A DNA stretch of 64,000 nucleotides from an uncultured Candidatus Saccharibacteria bacterium (GTDB lineage Bacteria > Patescibacteriota > Doudnabacteria > UBA920), in the NCBI GenBank assembly GCA_964612745.1, contig CAZTCH010000001.1:6074-70073 (forward strand), written 5' to 3'. A program made the position numbers and the translations under genes. Shown in pieces: positions 2,925-16,984 of the stretch (position 1 is the first letter of the stretch; each line of letters starts with the position of its first letter). The notes beneath the pieces are model-generated. The model had not been told where the DNA came from. It made no database searches and saw only the letters and a list, made by a program, of their open reading frames with translations.

Positions 2925-2973
2925 ATAGATATTGTATCACGAAGCGTTTGGTGTTTGTTTGGCCCTAAAACGA

Positions 2974-4383
2974 CTAGTTTTGAGTCTCTGGAACCGATTG
3001 GGAGATGATTTGTTTGTACGTAAAAGCGCTGGGTCTGATGGTGCGAGCTTGGTTGTTTGCGTAATCTACAGCAACAAGTCCAAACCTTGGCCAGAAACCT
3101 TTATCCCATTCGAAGTTGTCCAGAAGTGACCAGGTAAAATACCCACGGACATCTGCACCAGTTTGTAGAGCTTGTTGTACCCAAAAGATGTGGTCAGAAA
3201 TATATGCTGCTCGTAAAGTATCTTGCGCATCTGCAATCCCATTTTCTGTAATATAGATCGGTTTATTGTAACGTTGCGTTGTCTGCATGATTAGCTCGTA
3301 TATGCCATGTGGGTAGACTTCCCAGCCCATGTCGCTCTGTATTGGGGCATTAGGGTCTGGAAAGTTTCGTATCGACACACCATTTTTTCGGTTGAGTGAG
3401 ACTGCGTATTGCATTGGTCCGTAATACTGAATGCCAATAAAGTCCGAATAGTCCTTGGTTGCATCAAGAAATTTCCAATTGGCAAAACCATCAAGATACT
3501 GTTGTGCAAGAGTATTTAGTGCGGTTGCTGGTGCTGCACGTCCTAGTTGCATAGCATGCGTGCTCCCGACTTGCGCGGCTGTATTTTTAGAGTGAATAGC
3601 AGTGTAGGCTTGTTTGTGTGCTTCCATCATGCGCGCAAAGGCCTGATTACCTAAGCGGATACTGCGTTGTTCTGGTGGGATGATTCCTTGGACATATCCT
3701 CCACCAATGTGTAGTTCTGGTTCATTAAACGTCATGTAGTAGGTCACTTGCGAGCCAAATGTCTCTGCGACTTTTGTAGCAAATCGCGTAAAATCGCCCA
3801 CTGTTTTTTCGTTTGTCCATTCGCCTTGATCTGCAATCCAAGTGGGCTGAGTTCGGTGCCATAGTGTGACAAACGGTTCAATGCCCGCTGCTTTGAGTTC
3901 TGAAACAAAAGTCTGATAGTGGTTTAGTGCAGCGGTGTCAAATACTCCATCTGCAGGTTCAATCCGTGACCACTCGACTGAAAAACGATAGGCGGTTAGC
4001 CCGAGCTTTTTCATAATTGCAATGTCTTCCGGGTAACGATGTAACTGGTCCGCTGCTGTTCCAGAAATGTAGTTACTGCTTTCGCTCGCCGTTGCTGAAA
4101 ACAAGCCCCAACGGGGGGTGTTGCTAAATTTGTCCTCAGCCCCAGCAGCGAGCTGCTCAGCATGTGCTTGTTCCCACTGTGTCCAGTCATTGGAGGTGGA
4201 ACCTTCTACTTGGTGGGCAGAGGTGCTTGCTCCCCATAAAAACGAAGTGGGGAGGCGCAGATCTGTTACGGAATATGCTGGGGTCGGGATTTTCTTTCGT
4301 GTAGGGAGTGGTACAGTACAGGCGAGGATTACGAGTAGTATGATTGTGAGAGCGAAGCGGGGTATAAATGAGCGAATATGCAT
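2974..4383 (-). CDS. glycoside hydrolase family 1 beta-glucosidase, N-terminal membrane anchor/signal
   Basis: GH1 catalytic motifs TFNEP (acid/base) and ITENG (nucleophile). 469 aa. Confidence 0.85.
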   Translation of the reverse strand: MHIRSFIPRFALTIILLVILACTVPLPTRKKIPTPAYSVTDLRLPTSFLWGASTSAHQVEGSTSNDWTQWEQAHAEQLAAGAEDKFSNTPRWGLFSATASESSNYISGTAADQLHRYPEDIAIMKKLGLTAYRFSVEWSRIEPADGVFDTAALNHYQTFVSELKAAGIEPFVTLWHRTQPTWIADQGEWTNEKTVGDFTRFATKVAETFGSQVTYYMTFNEPELHIGGGYVQGIIPPEQRSIRLGNQAFARMMEAHKQAYTAIHSKNTAAQVGSTHAMQLGRAAPATALNTLAQQYLDGFANWKFLDATKDYSDFIGIQYYGPMQYAVSLNRKNGVSIRNFPDPNAPIQSDMGWEVYPHGIYELIMQTTQRYNKPIYITENGIADAQDTLRAAYISDHIFWVQQALQTGADVRGYFTWSLLDNFEWDKGFWPRFGLVAVDYANNQARTIRPSAFTYKQIISQSVPETQN

Positions 4384-12537: not shown

Positions 12538-12577
12538 GGCCTTGTTTAGGGTAAAAAAGGAAAACCGCCAGCGAACT

Positions 12578-13192
12578 TTATGGGTTCGGGGCGGTTGTTG
12601 TTAGCGGCTGCGTGGAAGTATAAACTGGCGCGTGTTTGTGTTGGTTTGAGTTTGCACTCCAGCGCATAGCTGTGTAGCTGTGTTCTAGCGCATGTCCTAC
12701 CCAGCGTTCATCTATGAACTGTGGGAGCCCTGGGCGTGGGTTCCATAAAAGCATGTTCCCAAGAAAGCGCCTCCATTCACTTTCTGGAAGTATTGCGGGA
12801 AAGTATAAGTGATGTGACCGTCCACTGCGGTATACATCTACACTTTTGATATCCCACCGAGCGGGTAACCATTTTGCAAAGTTACTATCAGTGTCGTGAG
12901 ATTCCTGACAGTCTGTGAAAAGCATGTGACCACGCTGGTTTCCATGTTTATCAAATACCTGCGATTGTATTGCAAGTTCTTGACCGAGTTTGAGTGTTTC
13001 AATGTGGTACTGAACCAAGTGGGGAGTTAAGTCCTCAAATTTGATTGGTACAATGACACGAGTGTCATTTGTACTCGTTTGCGGTACGTAGAAGTATTTT
13101 GCCAAAAGCAATATGCTTCCACGTGGTATAAGGCCAAGGCGGCCTAACTTGAGAATTGATTGTATGGGATGTAAGTCCCAGTTTATTTCCAC
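12578..13192 (-). CDS. hypothetical protein (GTG start, SD AAGGAGGG 9 nt upstream)
   Basis: 204-aa ORF with a good SD. No recognisable family. Confidence 0.5.
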   Translation of the reverse strand: MEINWDLHPIQSILKLGRLGLIPRGSILLLAKYFYVPQTSTNDTRVIVPIKFEDLTPHLVQYHIETLKLGQELAIQSQVFDKHGNQRGHMLFTDCQESHDTDSNFAKWLPARWDIKSVDVYRSGRSHHLYFPAILPESEWRRFLGNMLLWNPRPGLPQFIDERWVGHALEHSYTAMRWSANSNQHKHAPVYTSTQPLTTTAPNP

Positions 13193-13307
13193 TGTATTAG
13201 CCCTCCTTTGGGTTTCGTGTTGGGGGTATTGTAAGGAATACGGCTAAATATAGCAATTACAAAAAGCTCTATTACATTTCTTGTAATAGAGCGAGTGGTT
13301 GCCTGTT

Positions 13308-13439
13308 CTACTTGGGGAGTGGTTCGTAGCTGGCACGGGGAGAGCTGGGGACTTCGCGGGGAAGTTCGTGCTTGGTACAGCCTGCAGCAAGCAGGGTGAC
13401 CGAAAGAAGAAGTAGGAAATAGATGTGGAATGTTTTCAT
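13308..13439 (-). CDS. small lipoprotein (43 aa), leaderless promoter
   Basis: Manual translation gives MKTFHIYFLLLLSVTLLAAGCTKHELPREVPSSPRASYEPLPK, with a signal peptide and LAAGC lipobox. TATAAT sits 6 nt upstream of the ATG, and a hairpin terminator (13265-13293) follows the stop. Confidence 0.4.
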   Translation of the reverse strand: MKTFHIYFLLLLSVTLLAAGCTKHELPREVPSSPRASYEPLPK

Positions 13440-13520
13440 AGTAGTATTATACCGCATTGTGCCAGTGCATTGATTTTTTTGCCTTATTTTGTTAGTATAA
13501 GCAGGAATTGGGCAAGAGCA

Positions 13521-13556
13521 GAGAATAGAGAGTAGAGGTTAGAAAGAGCTTTTTAG
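13521..13556. repeat. copy of modular low-complexity intergenic repeat (inverted orientation)
   Basis: gagaatagagagtagaggttagaaagagctttttag matches blocks at 2412-2440 and 36960-37000 (CTCTACTCTCTATTCTC) and the AGCTTTTTAG block. Confidence 0.6.
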
Positions 13557-13623
13557 TTTTTCTGGCGTGAAGACTCTCTTGTCTTTCTCGCAACTAGCAA
13601 CTAGTCACTCGCAACTAATTCTG

Positions 13624-13699
13624 GCGCCATCATCTAATGGTTAGGATAGGTGGTTCTCATCCACCAAATCGGGGTTCGATTCCCCGTGGCGCTACCAAT
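13624..13699 (+). tRNA. tRNA-Glu (anticodon CUC), CCA encoded
   Basis: Manual fold: acceptor GGCGCCA/TGGCGCT, D-arm, anticodon stem GGTGG/CCACC with loop TTCTCAT, T-arm CGGGG-TTCGATT-CCCCG, then discriminator A and CCA. Confidence 0.75.
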
Positions 13700-13731
13700 A
13701 AAAATACACCAGCATGCTGGTGTATTTTTAT
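13699..13731. terminator. perfect palindromic hairpin terminator after tRNA-Glu
   Basis: aaaaatacaccagcatgctggtgtattttt. Confidence 0.6.
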
Positions 13732-13732
13732 T

Positions 13733-13930
13733 GGTAGAGAAAAGACACGGGGAATCGAAAAGAGCGGTCCCGCCACCAGCGGGACTGCGCTGCGACTAGT
13801 TGGAGCAGTGCAGAGCGGCGGGGTCGCGTTAGGCGTCATGCGATGCGCCCGAAGGAAGCAGAGCATAGCCGTGGGTGACTGATTCCCCGCATGTTCGCCG
13901 TAGCTTTGGCGAAGGAGTGTGGCGCTACCA
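13733..13930 (+). ncRNA. candidate structured non-coding RNA (GC-rich; SRP-RNA-like GAAGGAAGCAG motif at 13851-13861; ends pair)
   Basis: Lies between two strong terminators. The 5' CGGGGAATC (13757-13765) pairs with the 3' GATTCCCCG (13881-13889), and GGTAG pairs with CTACC. Local hairpins include GTCCCGC..GCGGGAC and GGCG..CGCC. The 3' end duplicates the tRNA-Glu 3' end (gattccccg...tggcgctacca) with a 30-nt insert. ORF-track ORFs here (13637..13882 and others) are judged spurious. Confidence 0.3.
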
Positions 13931-13972
13931 AACTAAAACAACACCGAACAATTGTTCGGTGTTTTAGTTTGC
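13930..13972 (+). terminator. long hairpin terminator (aaactaaaacaacaccgaacaa/ttgttcggtgttttagttt) followed by T-rich tail
   Basis: About 19-bp stem with a 3-nt bulge. Confidence 0.6.
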
Positions 13973-14004
13973 CCTGAGCTTGTCGAAGGGCTCCTGTAAT
14001 CGAC

Positions 14005-14040
14005 GATGGGCACCATGTGCTGCTGTAGATGGTGCCCATC
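14005..14040. repeat. GATGGGCACCAT hairpin repeat family, copy A
   Basis: GATGGGCACCAT-gtgctgctgt-AGATGGTGCCCATC. Other copies at 22635-22679, 42947-43045 and 50862-50914. Confidence 0.8.
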
Positions 14041-14090
14041 TTGCCACCAACTTACTTACCCCACCCCGTGTATTTTGTTATAATTGCTCT

Positions 14091-14579
14091 ATGCACATGT
14101 ATCTTATTGACGGTGTGTCCGGTGCCGGAAAAACAACAATTTGTGAAGAGTTAAATAAGCGCGGGTATAGAGCAGTGGAGGCTGACGAGGTATTAGCAGG
14201 ATTTATTGATCCCGCGACAGGATTGCCTACAGATGACCACTCATCCGAAAATTGGTATTGGAGCAAAGAAAAGTTTGAGAATATGGTCAAAGAAGCGGGT
14301 GAAGCTGATATTTTTGTTTGTGGTGGGGCGATGAATAAACCAGATTTTCTGAATCGATTCACTAAAGTCTTTACGCTACATCTTGATGATGAAACTTTGA
14401 GAGACAGATTGCTACACAGAACTACTAACGACTACGGTAAGAAGCCTGAGGAGCTGGATTTCCAACTCAGGGAGAATCAAAAAACTGTACAGTATTCTAA
14501 GGAGCGTGGTTCTATACTGATTGACGCTACTAAATCTGTCGATGAAGTTTTAACTCAAATAATAAAAAACCTTGTGTAG
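14091..14579 (+). CDS. P-loop NTPase, small nucleotide/antibiotic-kinase-like (AAA_33/CPT-like)
   Basis: Walker A GVSGAGKTT near the N-terminus. ATG at 14091 is 6 nt after TATAAT (14079-14084), a leaderless layout. The ORF-track 13980 start is upstream of the promoter. Confidence 0.65.
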   Translation: MHMYLIDGVSGAGKTTICEELNKRGYRAVEADEVLAGFIDPATGLPTDDHSSENWYWSKEKFENMVKEAGEADIFVCGGAMNKPDFLNRFTKVFTLHLDDETLRDRLLHRTTNDYGKKPEELDFQLRENQKTVQYSKERGSILIDATKSVDEVLTQIIKNLV

Positions 14580-14720
14580 ATCGTTCATACTGCTGACGAT
14601 GTACATTATGTGTAGCTACGACACGCTGTGTTCATTGTTGGGTGGTAATTATATTGAGGCGAGTTGGTAGCGCTGCTTTTTCCTGCTAAAATCACTAAAT
14701 CTAAAACCTAACGAAAAACT

Positions 14721-15200
14721 ATGACTTCAAAAAATACAGTGTGTTTGTGGTACGACCGTGATGCAGAAGCGGCAGCAAACTTTTACGCGGTAACGTTTCC
14801 GGATACGGTAGTGACAGGTGTGCACAAAGCGCCAAGTGATTTTCCCGATGGTAAAGCAGGGGACGTGCTTACCGTTAATTTTACGGTCATGGGCATACCT
14901 TGTATGGGTTTGAACGGCGGACCGGCATTTACACAGAGTGAAGCATTTTCTTTTCAGGTAATTACCGAAACACAAGAAGAAACAGACAAGTACTGGAACG
15001 CAATTGTAGAAAATGGTGGGCAGGAAAGTCAGTGCGGATGGTGCAAAGACCGCTGGGGTGTGTCGTGGCAAATTACCCCACGTGTGCTCGTGGACGCAAT
15101 GACTGCAGGTGGCGAAGAAGCAAAGCGCGCATTTGAAGCAATGATGCCCATGAAAAAGATTGACGTTGCTGCAATTGAGGCAGCACGTAAAGGGGAATAG
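14721..15200 (+). CDS. VOC-family protein (PhnB / 3-demethylubiquinone-9 methyltransferase-domain-like, COG3865)
   Basis: N-terminal CLWYDRDAEAAANFY matches the PhnB-like CLWFDGQAEEAANFY pattern. 159 aa. Confidence 0.7.
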   Translation: MTSKNTVCLWYDRDAEAAANFYAVTFPDTVVTGVHKAPSDFPDGKAGDVLTVNFTVMGIPCMGLNGGPAFTQSEAFSFQVITETQEETDKYWNAIVENGGQESQCGWCKDRWGVSWQITPRVLVDAMTAGGEEAKRAFEAMMPMKKIDVAAIEAARKGE

Positions 15201-15243
15201 CACAGTAAAAGTGGACAGTGGATAGTGGACAGAGAACAGTGCG

Positions 15244-15287
15244 CAGTCGTTTGAGGCCCTGAGGGGTCCTCAGGCCCTCGAAGGGTG
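15244..15287. repeat. hairpin repeat cagtcgtttgaggccctgaggggtcctcaggccctcgaagggtg (left copy flanking tRNA cluster)
   Basis: Internally palindromic (GAGGCCCTGAGG/CCTCAGGCCCTC). The inverted copy at 15802-15853 differs by a few bases. Confidence 0.7.
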
Positions 15288-15303
15288 GATAGTGGACAGA
15301 GGA

Positions 15304-15331
15304 AAAACCGTTGCGGGGCAGCGGTTTTTTT
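15304..15331 (+). terminator. hairpin plus T-run terminator after VOC gene
   Basis: aaaaaccgttgcggggcagcggttttttt. Confidence 0.55.
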
Positions 15332-15334
15332 GTA

Positions 15335-15363
15335 TTGACTTGATGGGATAAAGACGGTATCAT
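15335..15363 (+). promoter_or_regulatory. sigma70-like promoter for tRNA cluster (-35 TTGACT, 17-nt spacer, -10 TATCAT)
   Basis: Consensus hexamers sit 12 nt upstream of the first tRNA. Confidence 0.5.
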
Positions 15364-15375
15364 GCTTCAAACATC

Positions 15376-15447
15376 GGTCCCTTAACTTAATGGTAGAGTG
15401 CTGAGCTCCACGTTCAGAGGTTGTAGGTTCGAATCCTACAGGGGCCA
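15376..15447 (+). tRNA. tRNA-Trp-like (anticodon CCA), atypical C37 and A73
   Basis: Acceptor GGTCCCT/AGGGGCC, D-stem ACTT/GAGT, anticodon stem CTGAG/TTCAG with loop CTCCACG, T-arm GTAGG-TTCGAAT-CCTAC. No encoded CCA. Confidence 0.6.
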
Positions 15448-15571
15448 TGAGTTGTAGCTCAATGGTAGAGCGCTGCTACTGAATAGGTAGGCTAAGACAC
15501 ATCAATTGAAGAAATTATGTGTATAGCGATTAAAAATCCAGAGGTTGTGGGTTCGAATCCCATCAGCTCAG
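15448..15571 (+). tRNA. interrupted tRNA-like gene (124 nt): U1-A72 acceptor, canonical D-arm and T-arm, ~50-nt insertion where the anticodon arm should be
   Basis: 5' TGAGTTG-TA-GCTC-AATGGTA-GAGC and 3' AGGTT-GTGGG-TTCGAAT-CCCAT-CAGCTCA-G pair perfectly as an acceptor stem. No 5-7-5 anticodon arm could be built, and the insert contains an ACACAT/ATGTGT hairpin. Confidence 0.4.
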
Positions 15572-15573
15572 TT

Positions 15574-15646
15574 GCTAGGGTAGCTCAACGGCAGAGCGTT
15601 CGCTTTTATAGCGGAAGGATTGCGGGTTCGAGTCCCGTCCCTAGCG
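15574..15646 (+). tRNA. tRNA with UUA anticodon (ochre-suppressor-like tRNA-Sup(TTA)), 73 nt
   Basis: Perfect 7-bp acceptor GCTAGGG/CCCTAGC, D-arm GCTC-AACGGCA-GAGC, anticodon stem TTCGC/GCGGA with loop TTTTATA (positions 34-36 = TTA), T-arm GCGGG-TTCGAGT-CCCGT, discriminator G. Confidence 0.55.
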
Positions 15647-15801
15647 TTGTCCACAGGAGGACAGATACATGTGCGGTTTGGTGCCGCTTAGTGCGCCAAA
15701 TATTTTGGATCTTAGATCCATTCCGCACTGGCGAGCTTCGTGCCCGCCAACAGAAACGAAAAACAACATGTAATGGTACATGTTGTTTTGTTTTTTCTAT
15801 T

Positions 15802-15853
15802 CACCCTTCGAGGGTCTGAGGACTTCTCAGGGCCTCGAACGACTGTCCACTAT
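15802..15853. repeat. hairpin repeat, right (inverted) copy flanking tRNA cluster
   Basis: cacccttcgagggtctgaggacttctcagggcctcgaacgactgtccactat is the reverse complement of the 15244-15287 family. Confidence 0.7.
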
Positions 15854-15863
15854 ATACTGCTCT

Positions 15864-16730
15864 TTACTCTTCCTCGTCATCTTCATCGTCGTCGTCAATA
15901 AACTCATCTTCTTCTGTGGTGGTTGGGGTTGTTGCTGTAGGTGCTGGAGCAGGTGTTGGGGGTGTGTACGGAGCATATGCAGGCTGGGCTTGCGCGTATG
16001 CCGTGTGTTGGGGTGCTGGCTCTTGCCATGTTTGTGCTGGTGGCTCAGGTTGTACTACAGCTGGTGTTTCTGGTTCACTGAACACCGGAGGAGCTGTAGG
16101 GGCGCTTACATTTTGTGGAGTAGTAGGGAAGTTGGCTACAGGGTCGGTATAGCTTGTAGTTTGTACTGGTGCAGCCTCTGCTTCTGTGACTTCTGCTTTT
16201 GCTTGTGGTGTTTCTGGAAGTTTAATGCTTGCAGTAAGTTTTTCGAACTCTGGCAGGTCTGACACAGATTGCAAACCCATGTGTTGCAAAAACTCTGTCG
16301 TTAGCTGGTAGTGGGCACTTCTGCTGTCTGCAGGGTTAACCACTTTTTCTATAAGTCCGCGCATGAGCAACTGACGAATGGAATACTGACAGTTTACTCC
16401 ACGGATAGCTTCTATTTCTGCTTTGGAAATTGGCTGGCGGTACGCAATAATACCCAATACTTCTACGGTCGCATCGGTCAACTTTTCGCGCAGGTCTGCG
16501 GTTAAGTAGTTTTTAACTAAGTTTACATTTTGTGGGTTGGTACCGAGTTGCCACTGGCCATTGGCTTCCATGACTATGATGCCCGAAGCTTTGCGCGCTT
16601 CTTGCAAACTTTGCAATGCAGCAAGGACTTCTGCTTCTTCCTTTTCACAGAGTTTTGCAAGGAGCGCTGGAGTTGCTGGTTTGTTTGCAACAAACAAAAT
16701 GCTTTCGAGTTGTGCTTTGAGTTCTTCCAT
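15864..16730 (-). CDS. scpB: segregation and condensation protein B (ScpB) with ~115-aa Pro/Thr/Ala-rich and poly-acidic C-terminal extension
   Basis: N-terminal ScpB wHTH region (ESILFVANKP..., GIIAYRQPISKAEIEAIRGV). The tail ends EEDEFIDDDDEDDEEE. Confidence 0.8.
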   Translation of the reverse strand: MEELKAQLESILFVANKPATPALLAKLCEKEEAEVLAALQSLQEARKASGIIVMEANGQWQLGTNPQNVNLVKNYLTADLREKLTDATVEVLGIIAYRQPISKAEIEAIRGVNCQYSIRQLLMRGLIEKVVNPADSRSAHYQLTTEFLQHMGLQSVSDLPEFEKLTASIKLPETPQAKAEVTEAEAAPVQTTSYTDPVANFPTTPQNVSAPTAPPVFSEPETPAVVQPEPPAQTWQEPAPQHTAYAQAQPAYAPYTPPTPAPAPTATTPTTTEEDEFIDDDDEDDEEE

Positions 16731-16753
16731 AGGAGTGAAATAGAGTTAAAAAC

Positions 16754-16984
16754 TTACCGCGCTTGGAACAGCCAAATACCGAGACCAATTAATACCAGCG
16801 AAATAACCACAATCTGTGCTTGGTTGCCCATGAGTCGCGTGTTCTCGGGCATGCCTTCCGGGATTTTGAACACACCCACGTACGAAAGCAACCGTTGCAA
16901 CGTAAAATACCACGGCTCGTACAAGGTAGTACCGTAGATATAGCCCACTATTATGAGTAATGCAGCAAAGATAATTCTGTTCAT
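16754..16984 (-). CDS. small 2-TM membrane protein (76 aa) between scpA and scpB
   Basis: Hydrophobic helices. An overlapping alternative-frame ORF (16746..16994) looks less protein-like. Confidence 0.35.
   Translation of the reverse strand: MNRIIFAALLIIVGYIYGTTLYEPWYFTLQRLLSYVGVFKIPEGMPENTRLMGNQAQIVVISLVLIGLGIWLFQAR

Follow-up and report, generated by a model that had tools for sequence, protein, structure and literature searches.

An accessory operon of probable non-decoding tRNA mimics with a structured 3′ RNA domain in a Patescibacteria lineage

Results

A unit of three tRNA-like genes beside scpB

The subject of this analysis is a small operon of tRNA-like genes in a 64,000-nucleotide (nt) stretch of contig CAZTCH010000001.1 (assembly GCA_964612745.1), to which we refer as the window; coordinates given without a label are positions within the window, and L001–L047 are the labels of the comparison loci and contigs. 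The operon spans ~425 nt and consists of a promoter, three tRNA-shaped genes, a 3′ domain of ~113 nt, and a terminator (Table 1). The window is part of a Patescibacteria (Doudnabacteria-like) chromosome. The neighboring gene on the 3′ side of the operon is scpB (minus strand), whose nearest named homologues are from Candidatus Doudnabacteria and Patescibacteria. Comparison of the sequences indicates that the three tRNA-like genes, the 3′ domain, and the terminator form a single conserved transcription unit.

Table 1. Coordinates of the operon, its flanking elements, and the Ro60/RtcB-linked tRNA mimics found in comparison contigs.
Feature	Position	Strand	Description
Palindromic element, copy A	15238..15292		55 nt; 3′ of the PhnB-like VOC gene; window-specific; outside the conserved unit; internal hairpin 15250–15282
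Hairpin and T-run	15303..15329	+	AAAAACCGTTGC-GGG-GCAGCGGTTTTT; inverted repeat I10; likely the terminator of the upstream PhnB-like gene; L005 keeps the hairpin with another loop
Promoter, sigma-70 type	15335..15363	+	TTGACT-17-TATCAT; 10/12 consensus positions
tRNA-like gene 1	15376..15447	+	Cloverleaf; loop CUCCACG (15406–15412), anticodon CCA, C37, A73; no encoded CCA
tRNA-like gene 2	15448..15571	+	U1–A72 acceptor start, canonical D and T arms; anticodon arm replaced by 63 nt (15476–15538)
Insert of gene 2	15476..15538	+	Hairpin 1 (15476–15490), hairpin 2 (15491–15527), then GAUUAAAAAUC
tRNA-like gene 3	15574..15646	+	Cloverleaf; loop UUUUAUA (15604–15610), UUA at 34–36, U37, G73; no encoded CCA
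Structured 3′ RNA domain	15647..15759	+	Conserved; helices P0 (15647–15664), P1 (15671–15676 with 15723–15728), P2 (15677–15700) and P3 (15706–15720) inside P1, P4 (15729–15749)
Terminator hairpin	15760..15797		AT-rich 13-bp palindrome; T-runs on both strands; common to the operon and convergent scpB
Palindromic element, copy B	15797..15851		55 nt; 3′ of scpB on the other strand; window-specific; outside the conserved unit
Ro60/RtcB-linked mimics	L022 2513..3045		Four tandem units of two alternating types
Ro60/RtcB-linked mimics	L035 3061..3606		
Ro60/RtcB-linked mimic	L028 1239..1364		
Ro60/RtcB-linked mimic	L015 1515..1630		Same as L018/L034
Ro60/RtcB-linked mimic	L020 1652..1814		

In the 64 kb, ARAGORN calls three tRNAs, that is, tRNA-Glu(CUC) (13623–13697), tRNA-Trp(CCA) (gene 1), and tRNA-Stop(UUA) (15573–15647; gene 3). 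The Rfam tRNA model matches genes 1, 2, and 3 at 58.6, 49.4, and 58.9 bits, respectively (gathering score 29); in the alignment of gene 2, 63 nt stand where the model has 11 anticodon-arm positions. All three genes have the cloverleaf body of a canonical decoding tRNA, with a 7-bp acceptor stem, D and T arms, and the conserved D- and T-loop nucleotides of the elbow; the acceptor stem of gene 2 is built from six Watson–Crick pairs and U5–G68. The anticodon side departs from the 5-bp stem and 7-nt loop with U33 and a purine at position 37: gene 1 has C37, gene 3 has U37, and gene 2 has the branched insert. None of the three genes encodes CCA; the tRNA-Glu of the window does. An initial annotation, made from the letters of the window, had described three abutting and atypical tRNA-like genes behind a good promoter, with C37 and A73 in a tRNA-Trp fold, a large insert in an otherwise tRNA-like gene 2, and UUA in the loop of gene 3; the gene finders and a direct reading of the sequence agree with each of these observations at essentially the same positions. 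No Rfam family beyond generic tRNA fits the operon, ARAGORN calls no transfer-messenger RNA (tmRNA) in the window, and no Rfam tmRNA match is found at the locus.

The structured 3′ domain and the terminator, which had not been recognized before, are parts of the same unit. The z-score of the minimum free energy of the 3′ domain is −6.4 in the window and −4.9 in L005, which carries a whole additional hairpin; there is no Rfam match at E ≤ 1. Helix P0 contains AGGAGG (15655–15660), and both this motif and the ATG at 15669 are kept in all three lineages that carry the operon (vide infra). The small open reading frame (ORF) that starts at this ATG encodes 34, 21, or 18 amino acids (aa) depending on the lineage, owing to a nonsense change and a frameshift, and is conserved only for ~10 residues.

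The tRNA bodies and the 3′ domain are conserved among relatives

For the comparison with related genomes that the initial annotation had proposed, contigs were collected via homologues of ScpB, plus one via the upstream PhnB-like gene. The operon carriers form three lineages: the window; L003 and L004, with ScpB 99% identical to that of the window over the conserved domain; and L005, L006, and L007, with 86% identity. In both related lineages, the promoter hexamers, the three genes, the 3′ domain, and the terminator occupy the same site, with scpB on one side and the upstream gene on the other. L003 and L005 keep both hexamers (−35 and −10) at the same spacing; the sequence of the spacer is divergent.

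Synonymous and fourfold sites of four flanking genes were used as the measure of neutral divergence, which at fourfold sites is ~0.18–0.38 (about 0.25) between the window and L003 and 0.64–0.69 (about 0.66), that is, saturated, between the window and L005. The p-distances of the segments of the tRNA bodies are 0–0.12 to L003 and 0.07–0.30 to L005; the corresponding values are 0.04 and 0.27 for the 3′ domain and 0 and 0.11 for the terminator, which is identical in L003 and identical at 32 of 36 positions in L005. Compensatory double changes across the three lineages affect two, three, and two base pairs in genes 1, 2, and 3, respectively, and five in the 3′ domain. Examples include A–U to C–G in the T stem and A–U to G–C in the D stem of gene 1, U1–A72 to G1–C72 in gene 2 of L005, and, in gene 3, G6–C67 to A6–U67 in the acceptor stem and C50–G64 to U50–A64 in the T stem. 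Because the distances of the bodies are far below the synonymous divergence and the stems have changed in a compensatory manner, the genes are unlikely to be decaying pseudogenes. The comparison indicates that the tRNA bodies and the 3′ domain are under purifying selection and that the anticodons are not.

The anticodon regions vary on conserved bodies

In gene 1 the anticodon is CCA in the window, CCG in L003, and UCG in L005, although the body hardly differs. Each of the three lineages has C37 and could form a C32–G38 pair, which would reduce the loop to 5 nt. In gene 3 the loop is UUUUAUA (7 nt) in the window, UUUAUA (6 nt) in L003/L004, and GGUCAG (6 nt) in L005/L006; ARAGORN gives no assignment to the genes with 6-nt loops. 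Neither gene thus keeps its anticodon across its orthologues. Compared with the closest relative, gene 3 of the window has one additional T in a T-run, which yields UUA; on this comparison, the apparent ochre anticodon is best described as the fortuitous result of a single-base difference in length within a loop that is not under constraint, and the extra T may be a homopolymer assembly error.

The branched insert of gene 2 is 63–68 nt long across the lineages, and two hairpins are predicted in all three; its sequence differs at 26 of 51 aligned positions from that of L003 (p-distance 0.51) and has a p-distance of 0.73 to that of L005. The divergence of the insert is at or above the synonymous rate (0.51 vs ~0.25 for the window and L003), and in an nhmmer search the insert of the window does not recognize that of L003, although the flanks are ~95% identical. 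In L005, the branch is closed by a 7-bp stem (CUACUUG/CAAGUAG), and an anticodon-type loop is absent. As a control, the neighboring tRNA-Glu keeps its 7-nt loop, A37, Glu anticodon, and encoded CCA in contigs in which ScpB is only 70–74% identical. Together, these comparisons argue that the anticodon arms of the operon are free of decoding constraint. We considered a kissing loop between the loop of gene 3 and the single-stranded tail of gene 2; by inspection it fits the window and L005 and fails in L003, so it was rejected.

The operon is accessory

The operon is absent from L045, in which ScpB is 97% identical to that of the window (conserved domain); downstream of scpB, L045 has a single hairpin and then the TCTATTCAC flank that elsewhere follows the terminator of the operon. 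It is also absent from L047, in which ScpB is 96% identical to that of L005: L047 has exactly the flanking genes of L005, namely the PhnB-like gene, that for the small lipoprotein, and scpB, and a terminator alone occupies the place of the operon. Six more distant lineages (L009, L011, L013, L041, L043, and L044) likewise have no operon at this position. In the ScpB tree every operon-bearing sub-clade includes an empty-site strain, a distribution that indicates that the unit is dispensable. The boundaries of the insertion/deletion are at the −35 element of the promoter (TGTATTGAC) and just past the terminator (TCTATTCAC), that is, at similar 9-mers each preceded by a T-run; we infer that the unit could be deleted by short-repeat recombination between the two 9-mers.

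L043 (ScpB 74% identical) has two other tRNA-like genes at the position between the lipoprotein gene and scpB (4200–4345, minus strand), with their own TTGACT-17-TATTAT promoter and terminator and without a 3′ domain. The first, which has no D arm, combines an acceptor stem and a T arm with a hairpin of 8 bp and a 4-nt loop in the position of the anticodon arm; the second is a cloverleaf with the loop CUGAUCA (GAU, C37). Orthology of either to genes 1–3 could not be established in the comparison. The pair hints that odd tRNA-like genes at this locus predate the three-gene unit. The PhnB-like gene of proteobacterial similarity, the att-like duplications of the 3′ end of the nearby tRNA-Glu, and the Hachiman-type pair next door in L005 (see Neighboring genes) mark the locus as a gain/loss hot spot, and the region from scpB to tRNA-Glu appears variable and island-like.

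The flanking palindromes are not part of the operon

The operon lies between two copies of a palindromic element in inverted orientation, as the initial annotation had noted; the arms (inverted repeat I1) are 55 nt long and 87% complementary, and each folds as a hairpin. The core motif of the repeat has 4 matches in the 64 kb (0.48 expected), and all of them are at the two copies. Both 55-nt copies are absent from the operon carriers L003 and L005, the sole other copy is in L001, which is the same strain, and copy B aligns as an insertion relative to L003, L005, and L045. Copy A closely follows the 3′ end of the PhnB-like gene (plus strand), copy B that of scpB (minus strand), and the two copies have the same orientation with respect to their own genes. 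The genes converge, and this arrangement by itself makes the copies inverted with respect to each other. We read the copies as putative repetitive extragenic palindrome (REP)-like elements of 3′ untranslated regions that were gained in the lineage of the window, not as the ends of a mobile cassette.

The initial annotation had raised a possibly mobile cassette. A cassette bounded by terminal inverted repeats is not supported: the repeats are missing from operon carriers, and the presence/absence boundaries are at the −35 element and after the terminator. Pfam scans of the neighbors found no recombinase next to the operon. What stands of the original proposal is the possible mobility, in that presence and absence among close relatives fit an accessory, possibly transferable element; what falls is the inverted hairpins as its vehicle.

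Tandem heptamer repeats, which are lineage-specific and inverted on the two sides, flank the intergenic terminators beside scpB; they are located at 15211–15241, 15285–15299, and 15843–15857 (minus strand) in the window, at 887–925 and 975–1000 in L047, and at 1107–1125 in L045. The heptamers are GTGGACA/GTGGATA/GTGGACA/GAGAACA in the window and L045 and TAGTACC/TAGTCCA/TAGTACT/TAGTGCT in L047.

Discussion

Non-decoding tRNA mimics as the preferred reading

We favor the interpretation, with a probability of roughly 60%, that the locus is an accessory operon that encodes non-decoding tRNA mimics followed by a 3′ RNA domain. The transcript would be cut at the tRNA-like bodies by RNase P and RNase Z, and CCA would possibly be added to the processed tRNA-like RNAs. 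Cleavage would release the 3′ RNA as a molecule of its own, together with three stable mimics that would act via their tRNA shape, that is, as scaffolds or competitors for tRNA-binding proteins. Their anticodon-side modules (the odd 5–7-nt loops of genes 1 and 3 and the two-hairpin branch of gene 2) would either drift or provide lineage-specific effector surfaces; this proposal is modeled on the tRNA-like Y RNAs and on tRNA-Other of Bacillus. For gene 2, a tRNA-like structural RNA is the best of the three possibilities that had been offered, the others being an intron-containing tRNA and a disrupted pseudo-tRNA.

Several observations weigh against this interpretation. Genes 1 and 3 score like ordinary tRNAs in Rfam (~59 bits) and keep U33, and C35 of gene 1 is kept in all lineages; these two RNAs may be charged by some synthetase and may even decode occasionally. 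Removal of 52–54 nt from gene 2 of the window and L003 gives a perfect cloverleaf with the loops UUAAAAA and UUUCAGA, respectively, and this is hard to dismiss entirely as mere coincidence. The operon is found in only three independent lineages, so the counts of covarying pairs are small. Our tRNA census covers the 64-kb window, and any canonical tRNA-Trp and tRNA-Arg genes would be located elsewhere in the genome. Finally, the only consistently linked gene is that for the PhnB-like VOC protein, which pinpoints no partner protein.

If the interpretation is correct, the list of bacterial tRNA mimics (tmRNA, YrlA, tRNA-Other) would be extended to Patescibacteria, with a triple array of mimics and an unclassified structured 3′ RNA in a lineage of the candidate phyla radiation (CPR) as what is new. 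A genome-reduced episymbiont lineage would keep a strongly promoted mimic operon under purifying selection, and sister strains do without it; this poses the tractable question of which protein reads the tRNA shape once the anticodon is irrelevant. The locus also bears on annotation: gene finders label it ‘tRNA-Trp’ and ‘suppressor tRNA’, labels that the comparison with relatives suggests are artefacts of tRNA mimicry and that might prompt spurious reports of recoded stop codons in CPR genomes.

The 3′ domain as the product

The alternative that survives best, although we consider it doubtful, is that the 3′ domain is the real product, either as a small RNA (sRNA) or via the small ORF from 15669, and that the tRNA bodies serve as stabilizing punctuation for processing by RNase P and RNase Z. 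These enzymes need only the acceptor/T/D half of a tRNA, and the pattern of conservation in the operon matches this need; tRNA-linked sRNAs and sponges from 3′ external transcribed spacers are precedents for such a role. The 3′ domain is also the best conserved non-tRNA segment, with the low z-score and the five compensatory pairs described above, and AGGAGG and the ATG are retained in each lineage. However, processing would require only a single tRNA, and the operon retains three; in L043 no 3′ domain accompanies the tRNA-like genes at this locus; and the peptide diverges in length and sequence after its first ~10 residues.

Decoys against nucleases or toxins

A more specific and rather improbable version of the mimic interpretation is that the RNAs represent a Ro60-independent class of tRNA-scaffolded RNAs in CPR bacteria that would act as decoys for, or inhibitors of, tRNA-targeting nucleases or toxins. 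Mimics that cannot be cleaved or decoded (pyrimidine 37, 5–6-nt loops, branched arm) would be pseudo-substrates for enzymes from phages, competitors, or the host of the episymbiont, and the changing modules would reflect an arms race. The divergence of the gene 2 insert, at or above the synonymous rate, and the setting of the unit in a gain/loss hot spot beside defence genes are the observations that could be cited for this possibility.

Relic of a transferred tRNA cluster

It is unlikely that the genes are decaying pseudogenes, that is, a functionless relic of a horizontally acquired tRNA cluster from a phage or island. The setting is what such a relic might show: the operon is in a variable region, close to an integration hot spot at tRNA-Glu and to a PhnB-like gene that was acquired recently by transfer, genes for Hachiman HamA and a helicase are nearby in L005, the unit has been lost at least twice, and the anticodon loops are degenerate. 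However, the bodies, promoter hexamers, 3′ domain, and terminator differ from those of L005 by 0.07–0.30, against a synonymous divergence of ~0.66, and compensatory changes keep the stems paired. In addition, no phage or plasmid homologue was found: a blastn search of the operon against INPHARED phages and PLSDB plasmids returned generic tRNA similarity only, and viral contigs contained no match to patterns derived from gene 1, gene 3, or the 3′ domain. Six-frame translations of spurious ORFs of the operon had no matches in a protein database and revealed no further copies of the operon.

Suppression, recoding, and altered codes

The initial annotation had proposed a suppressor or recoding cassette. 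In such a working unit, gene 3 would suppress ochre codons, gene 1 would act as a (mis)decoding Trp or Arg tRNA, and gene 2 would yield its tRNA by splicing, with strain-specific read-through or reassignment as the outcome. The calls of tRNA-Stop(UUA) and tRNA-Trp(CCA), the three good tRNA scores, the selection on the tRNA bodies, and the strong promoter are compatible with this proposal, which we nevertheless consider very unlikely. The orthologues of gene 3 have 6-nt loops, so that the 7-nt loop with UUA is found only in the window, and the anticodons of gene 1 differ on near-identical bodies. A purine at position 37 is near-universal in decoding tRNAs, and genes 1 and 3 have C37 and U37; tryptophanyl-tRNA synthetase expects G73 and arginyl-tRNA synthetase expects A20, and gene 1, with A73 and U20, is without these usual bacterial identity elements. 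TAA ends 27 of the 45 ORFs of at least 150 aa in the window (~60%), including rpoA and the malic enzyme gene, in agreement with the initial annotation; with TAA as the predominant stop codon, a functional ochre suppressor would come at a high cost, and this usage is incompatible with read-through of UAA. Moreover, sister strains lack the unit, and the genes encode no CCA, unlike tRNA-Glu.

A pattern for tRNAs with the UUA loop had no match in viral contigs and a single chance match in 185,579 species genomes (the species of the window is evidently not among them), inside a coding region of a metagenome-assembled genome of Ignavibacteriaceae. Suppressor tRNAs of stop-recoded phages resemble gene 3 of the window in that the gene finder calls UUA; however, the phage-type tRNA-Sup(UUA) of L037 has an ordinary CUUUAAU loop with A37, whereas gene 3 has UUUUAUA with U37 and orthologues with 6-nt loops. 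L037 (metagenome contig MDTC01169440.1) has two predicted tRNA-Sup(UUA) genes, at 2310–2382 and 2939–3011, and one call with the 4-base anticodon ‘atta’; the array is probably from a stop-codon-recoded phage.

Of the same 45 ORFs in the window, at most one (0–1) ends with TGA, and those that end with TGA are without Pfam support. Reassignment of TGA was rejected: no in-frame TGA breaks the genes of the window, and conserved genes end with TGA in L005, L008, and L009, so the scarcity of TGA in the window is a skew in usage and not a change of code.

An intron in gene 2

Still less probable is an intron-containing tRNA, as had also been suggested, from which removal of a 52-nt insert would give a normal decoder. 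Excision of 15476–15527 does yield a perfect cloverleaf with the anticodon stem CUGGA/UCCAG. However, the resulting anticodons of the window (AAA) and L003 (UCA) are unrelated and no loop is restored in L005; the insert is located in the stem, between positions 29 and 30, is only 52 nt long, and matches no Rfam intron or ribozyme family (E ≤ 1), including group I. Bacterial tRNA introns are group I introns of at least ~200 nt in the anticodon loop (PMC13011429). The group I intron tRNAs of Patescibacteria are from the same phylum, and there too the insertion hides the genes from standard finders, as for gene 2; however, those introns are self-splicing and interrupt the anticodon loop, e.g., at 35/36 (Nakagawa et al., 2026, PMC13011429), whereas the insert of gene 2 is 52 nt long, in the stem, and hypervariable. 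The insert is predicted to fold into two simple hairpins, with no obvious bulge-helix-bulge in these predicted folds, for which no dedicated tool was used.

Relation to Y RNAs and other tRNA mimics

That the RNAs of the operon are Ro60-bound Y RNAs of the YrlA family is hardly credible: the architecture of gene 2 is like that of Ro60-linked tRNA mimics and YrlA gives weak partial matches at 15415–15475 (30 bits) and 15543–15597 (22 bits; gathering score 69), but each of these matches runs from the T arm of one tRNA into the D arm of the following tRNA, and the Ro60-binding motif GNCGAAN0-1G is absent from the operon in the window, L003, and L005 and also from L043. Matches of this type are the false positives that the authors of the YrlA family filtered (PMC4201824), so we rejected them as artefacts of tandem tRNAs. 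A YrlA RNA would be expected to lie no more than ~4 kb from a gene for Ro60 (TROVE); a tblastn search with Ro60 and RtcB found no homologue in the 64-kb window or the loci of the relatives, and Pfam scans of the neighbors of the operon found no TROVE domain.

The design is nevertheless similar. YrlA RNAs (Chen et al., 2014, PMC4201824) and, by the comparisons above, probably also the RNAs of the operon are non-decoding, with the D arm, T arm, and acceptor-like stem kept; in both, another module replaces the anticodon side, and there are often several copies per locus. Yrn1 of D. radiodurans has a 6-nt ‘anticodon loop’ (PMC4201824). The operon differs from YrlA in the absence of a Ro60 motif and of nearby Ro60 or RtcB genes, in ending in an acceptor stem that is not permuted, in the normal-length anticodon arms of genes 1 and 3, and in its separate 3′ domain.

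Viral and metagenomic contigs were scanned with a gapped pattern that consists of the D arm of gene 2, 55–85 nt, and the T arm. The scan returned 5 viral and 21 metagenomic stretches, several of which are true tRNA bodies with a ~55-nt insert; no homologue of the operon was found in the metagenomic scan. Five distinct loci are beside genes for Ro60 (TROVE/vWA) and/or RtcB (Table 1), and these serve as controls for the motif search: GNCGAA is found in four of the five (L022, with four matches; L035, with two; L015; and L020) and not in L028. In these mimics the 7-bp acceptor stem is perfect, and the anticodon stem carries, in its 5′ strand, an insert of ~55 nt that often ends in GGGUUAUC; in L022 the array immediately precedes Ro60 and RtcB. 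The mimics appear to be relatives of YrlA Y RNAs that are not permuted and score below the Rfam YrlA threshold, and such tandem arrays with Ro60 sites suggest that the design has a wider distribution than is covered by the curated YrlA model. By analogy, a tRNA body with an inserted module is an established non-decoding design, and gene 2 would share this design and not the Ro60 module.

Genes for tRNAs of phage arrays in L019 (4793–4896; an IMG/VR contig of 123 kb) and L031/L016 (2198–2307) have a similar ~48–55-nt insert that ends in GGUUAUC; neither ARAGORN nor Rfam (gathering threshold) calls them, and no Ro60 gene is within the stretch examined. The set includes a tRNA-Met-like gene in which the CUCAUAA loop is intact after the insert.

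The tRNA-Other of B. cereus (Rogers et al., 2012, PMC3399842) is, like the operon, tRNA-shaped and located at a variable region or island edge, with no role in translation; it has been proposed to be a tRNA-like element inside a longer regulatory transcript (PMC3399842). It is a single gene of Firmicutes with no sequence relation to the operon and no equivalent of the triple array, the branched insert, or the 3′ domain. Accessory tRNA arrays such as the cryptic trn operon of Anabaena PCC 7120 are described as dispensable, separately regulated, additional to the housekeeping set, and in some cases atypical (PMC8421152, PMC10272220), features that resemble those of the operon; however, they contain 20–40 mostly decodable tRNAs with proper loops, whereas the operon has three genes and no canonical conserved anticodon loop.

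Neighboring genes

The PhnB-like VOC/glyoxalase protein (14721–15200; Pfam 3-dmu-9_3-mt) is ~78–82% identical to thousands of homologues, including one from Paracoccus. Its gene adjoins the operon in the window and L005, and the ~80% identity to proteobacterial homologues points to a recent horizontal transfer into this CPR clade. As an anchor for collecting members of the clade, the protein was rejected as a poor marker because of this identity; the one extra locus found with it is an empty site.

Near tRNA-Glu, the 3′ end of the tRNA gene (GTGGCGCTACCAA; 13684–13697) is repeated ~220 nt downstream (13918–13930). The stretch between the repeats (13725–13917) is GC-rich, has a z-score of −3.5, and contains a CCCGAAGGAAGCAG motif like that of signal recognition particle RNA; 13684–13930 represents either an att-type scar left by an integrated element or a structured RNA that lacks annotation. 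A similar duplicated 3′ part of tRNA-Glu is present in L041 (12117–12212). An AEP-like primase-domain protein is encoded beside tRNA-Glu in the window (12578–13192, minus strand), and in L005 a Hachiman-type HamA and a DEAD/HIRAN helicase (12576–16804) are encoded beside the PhnB-like gene.

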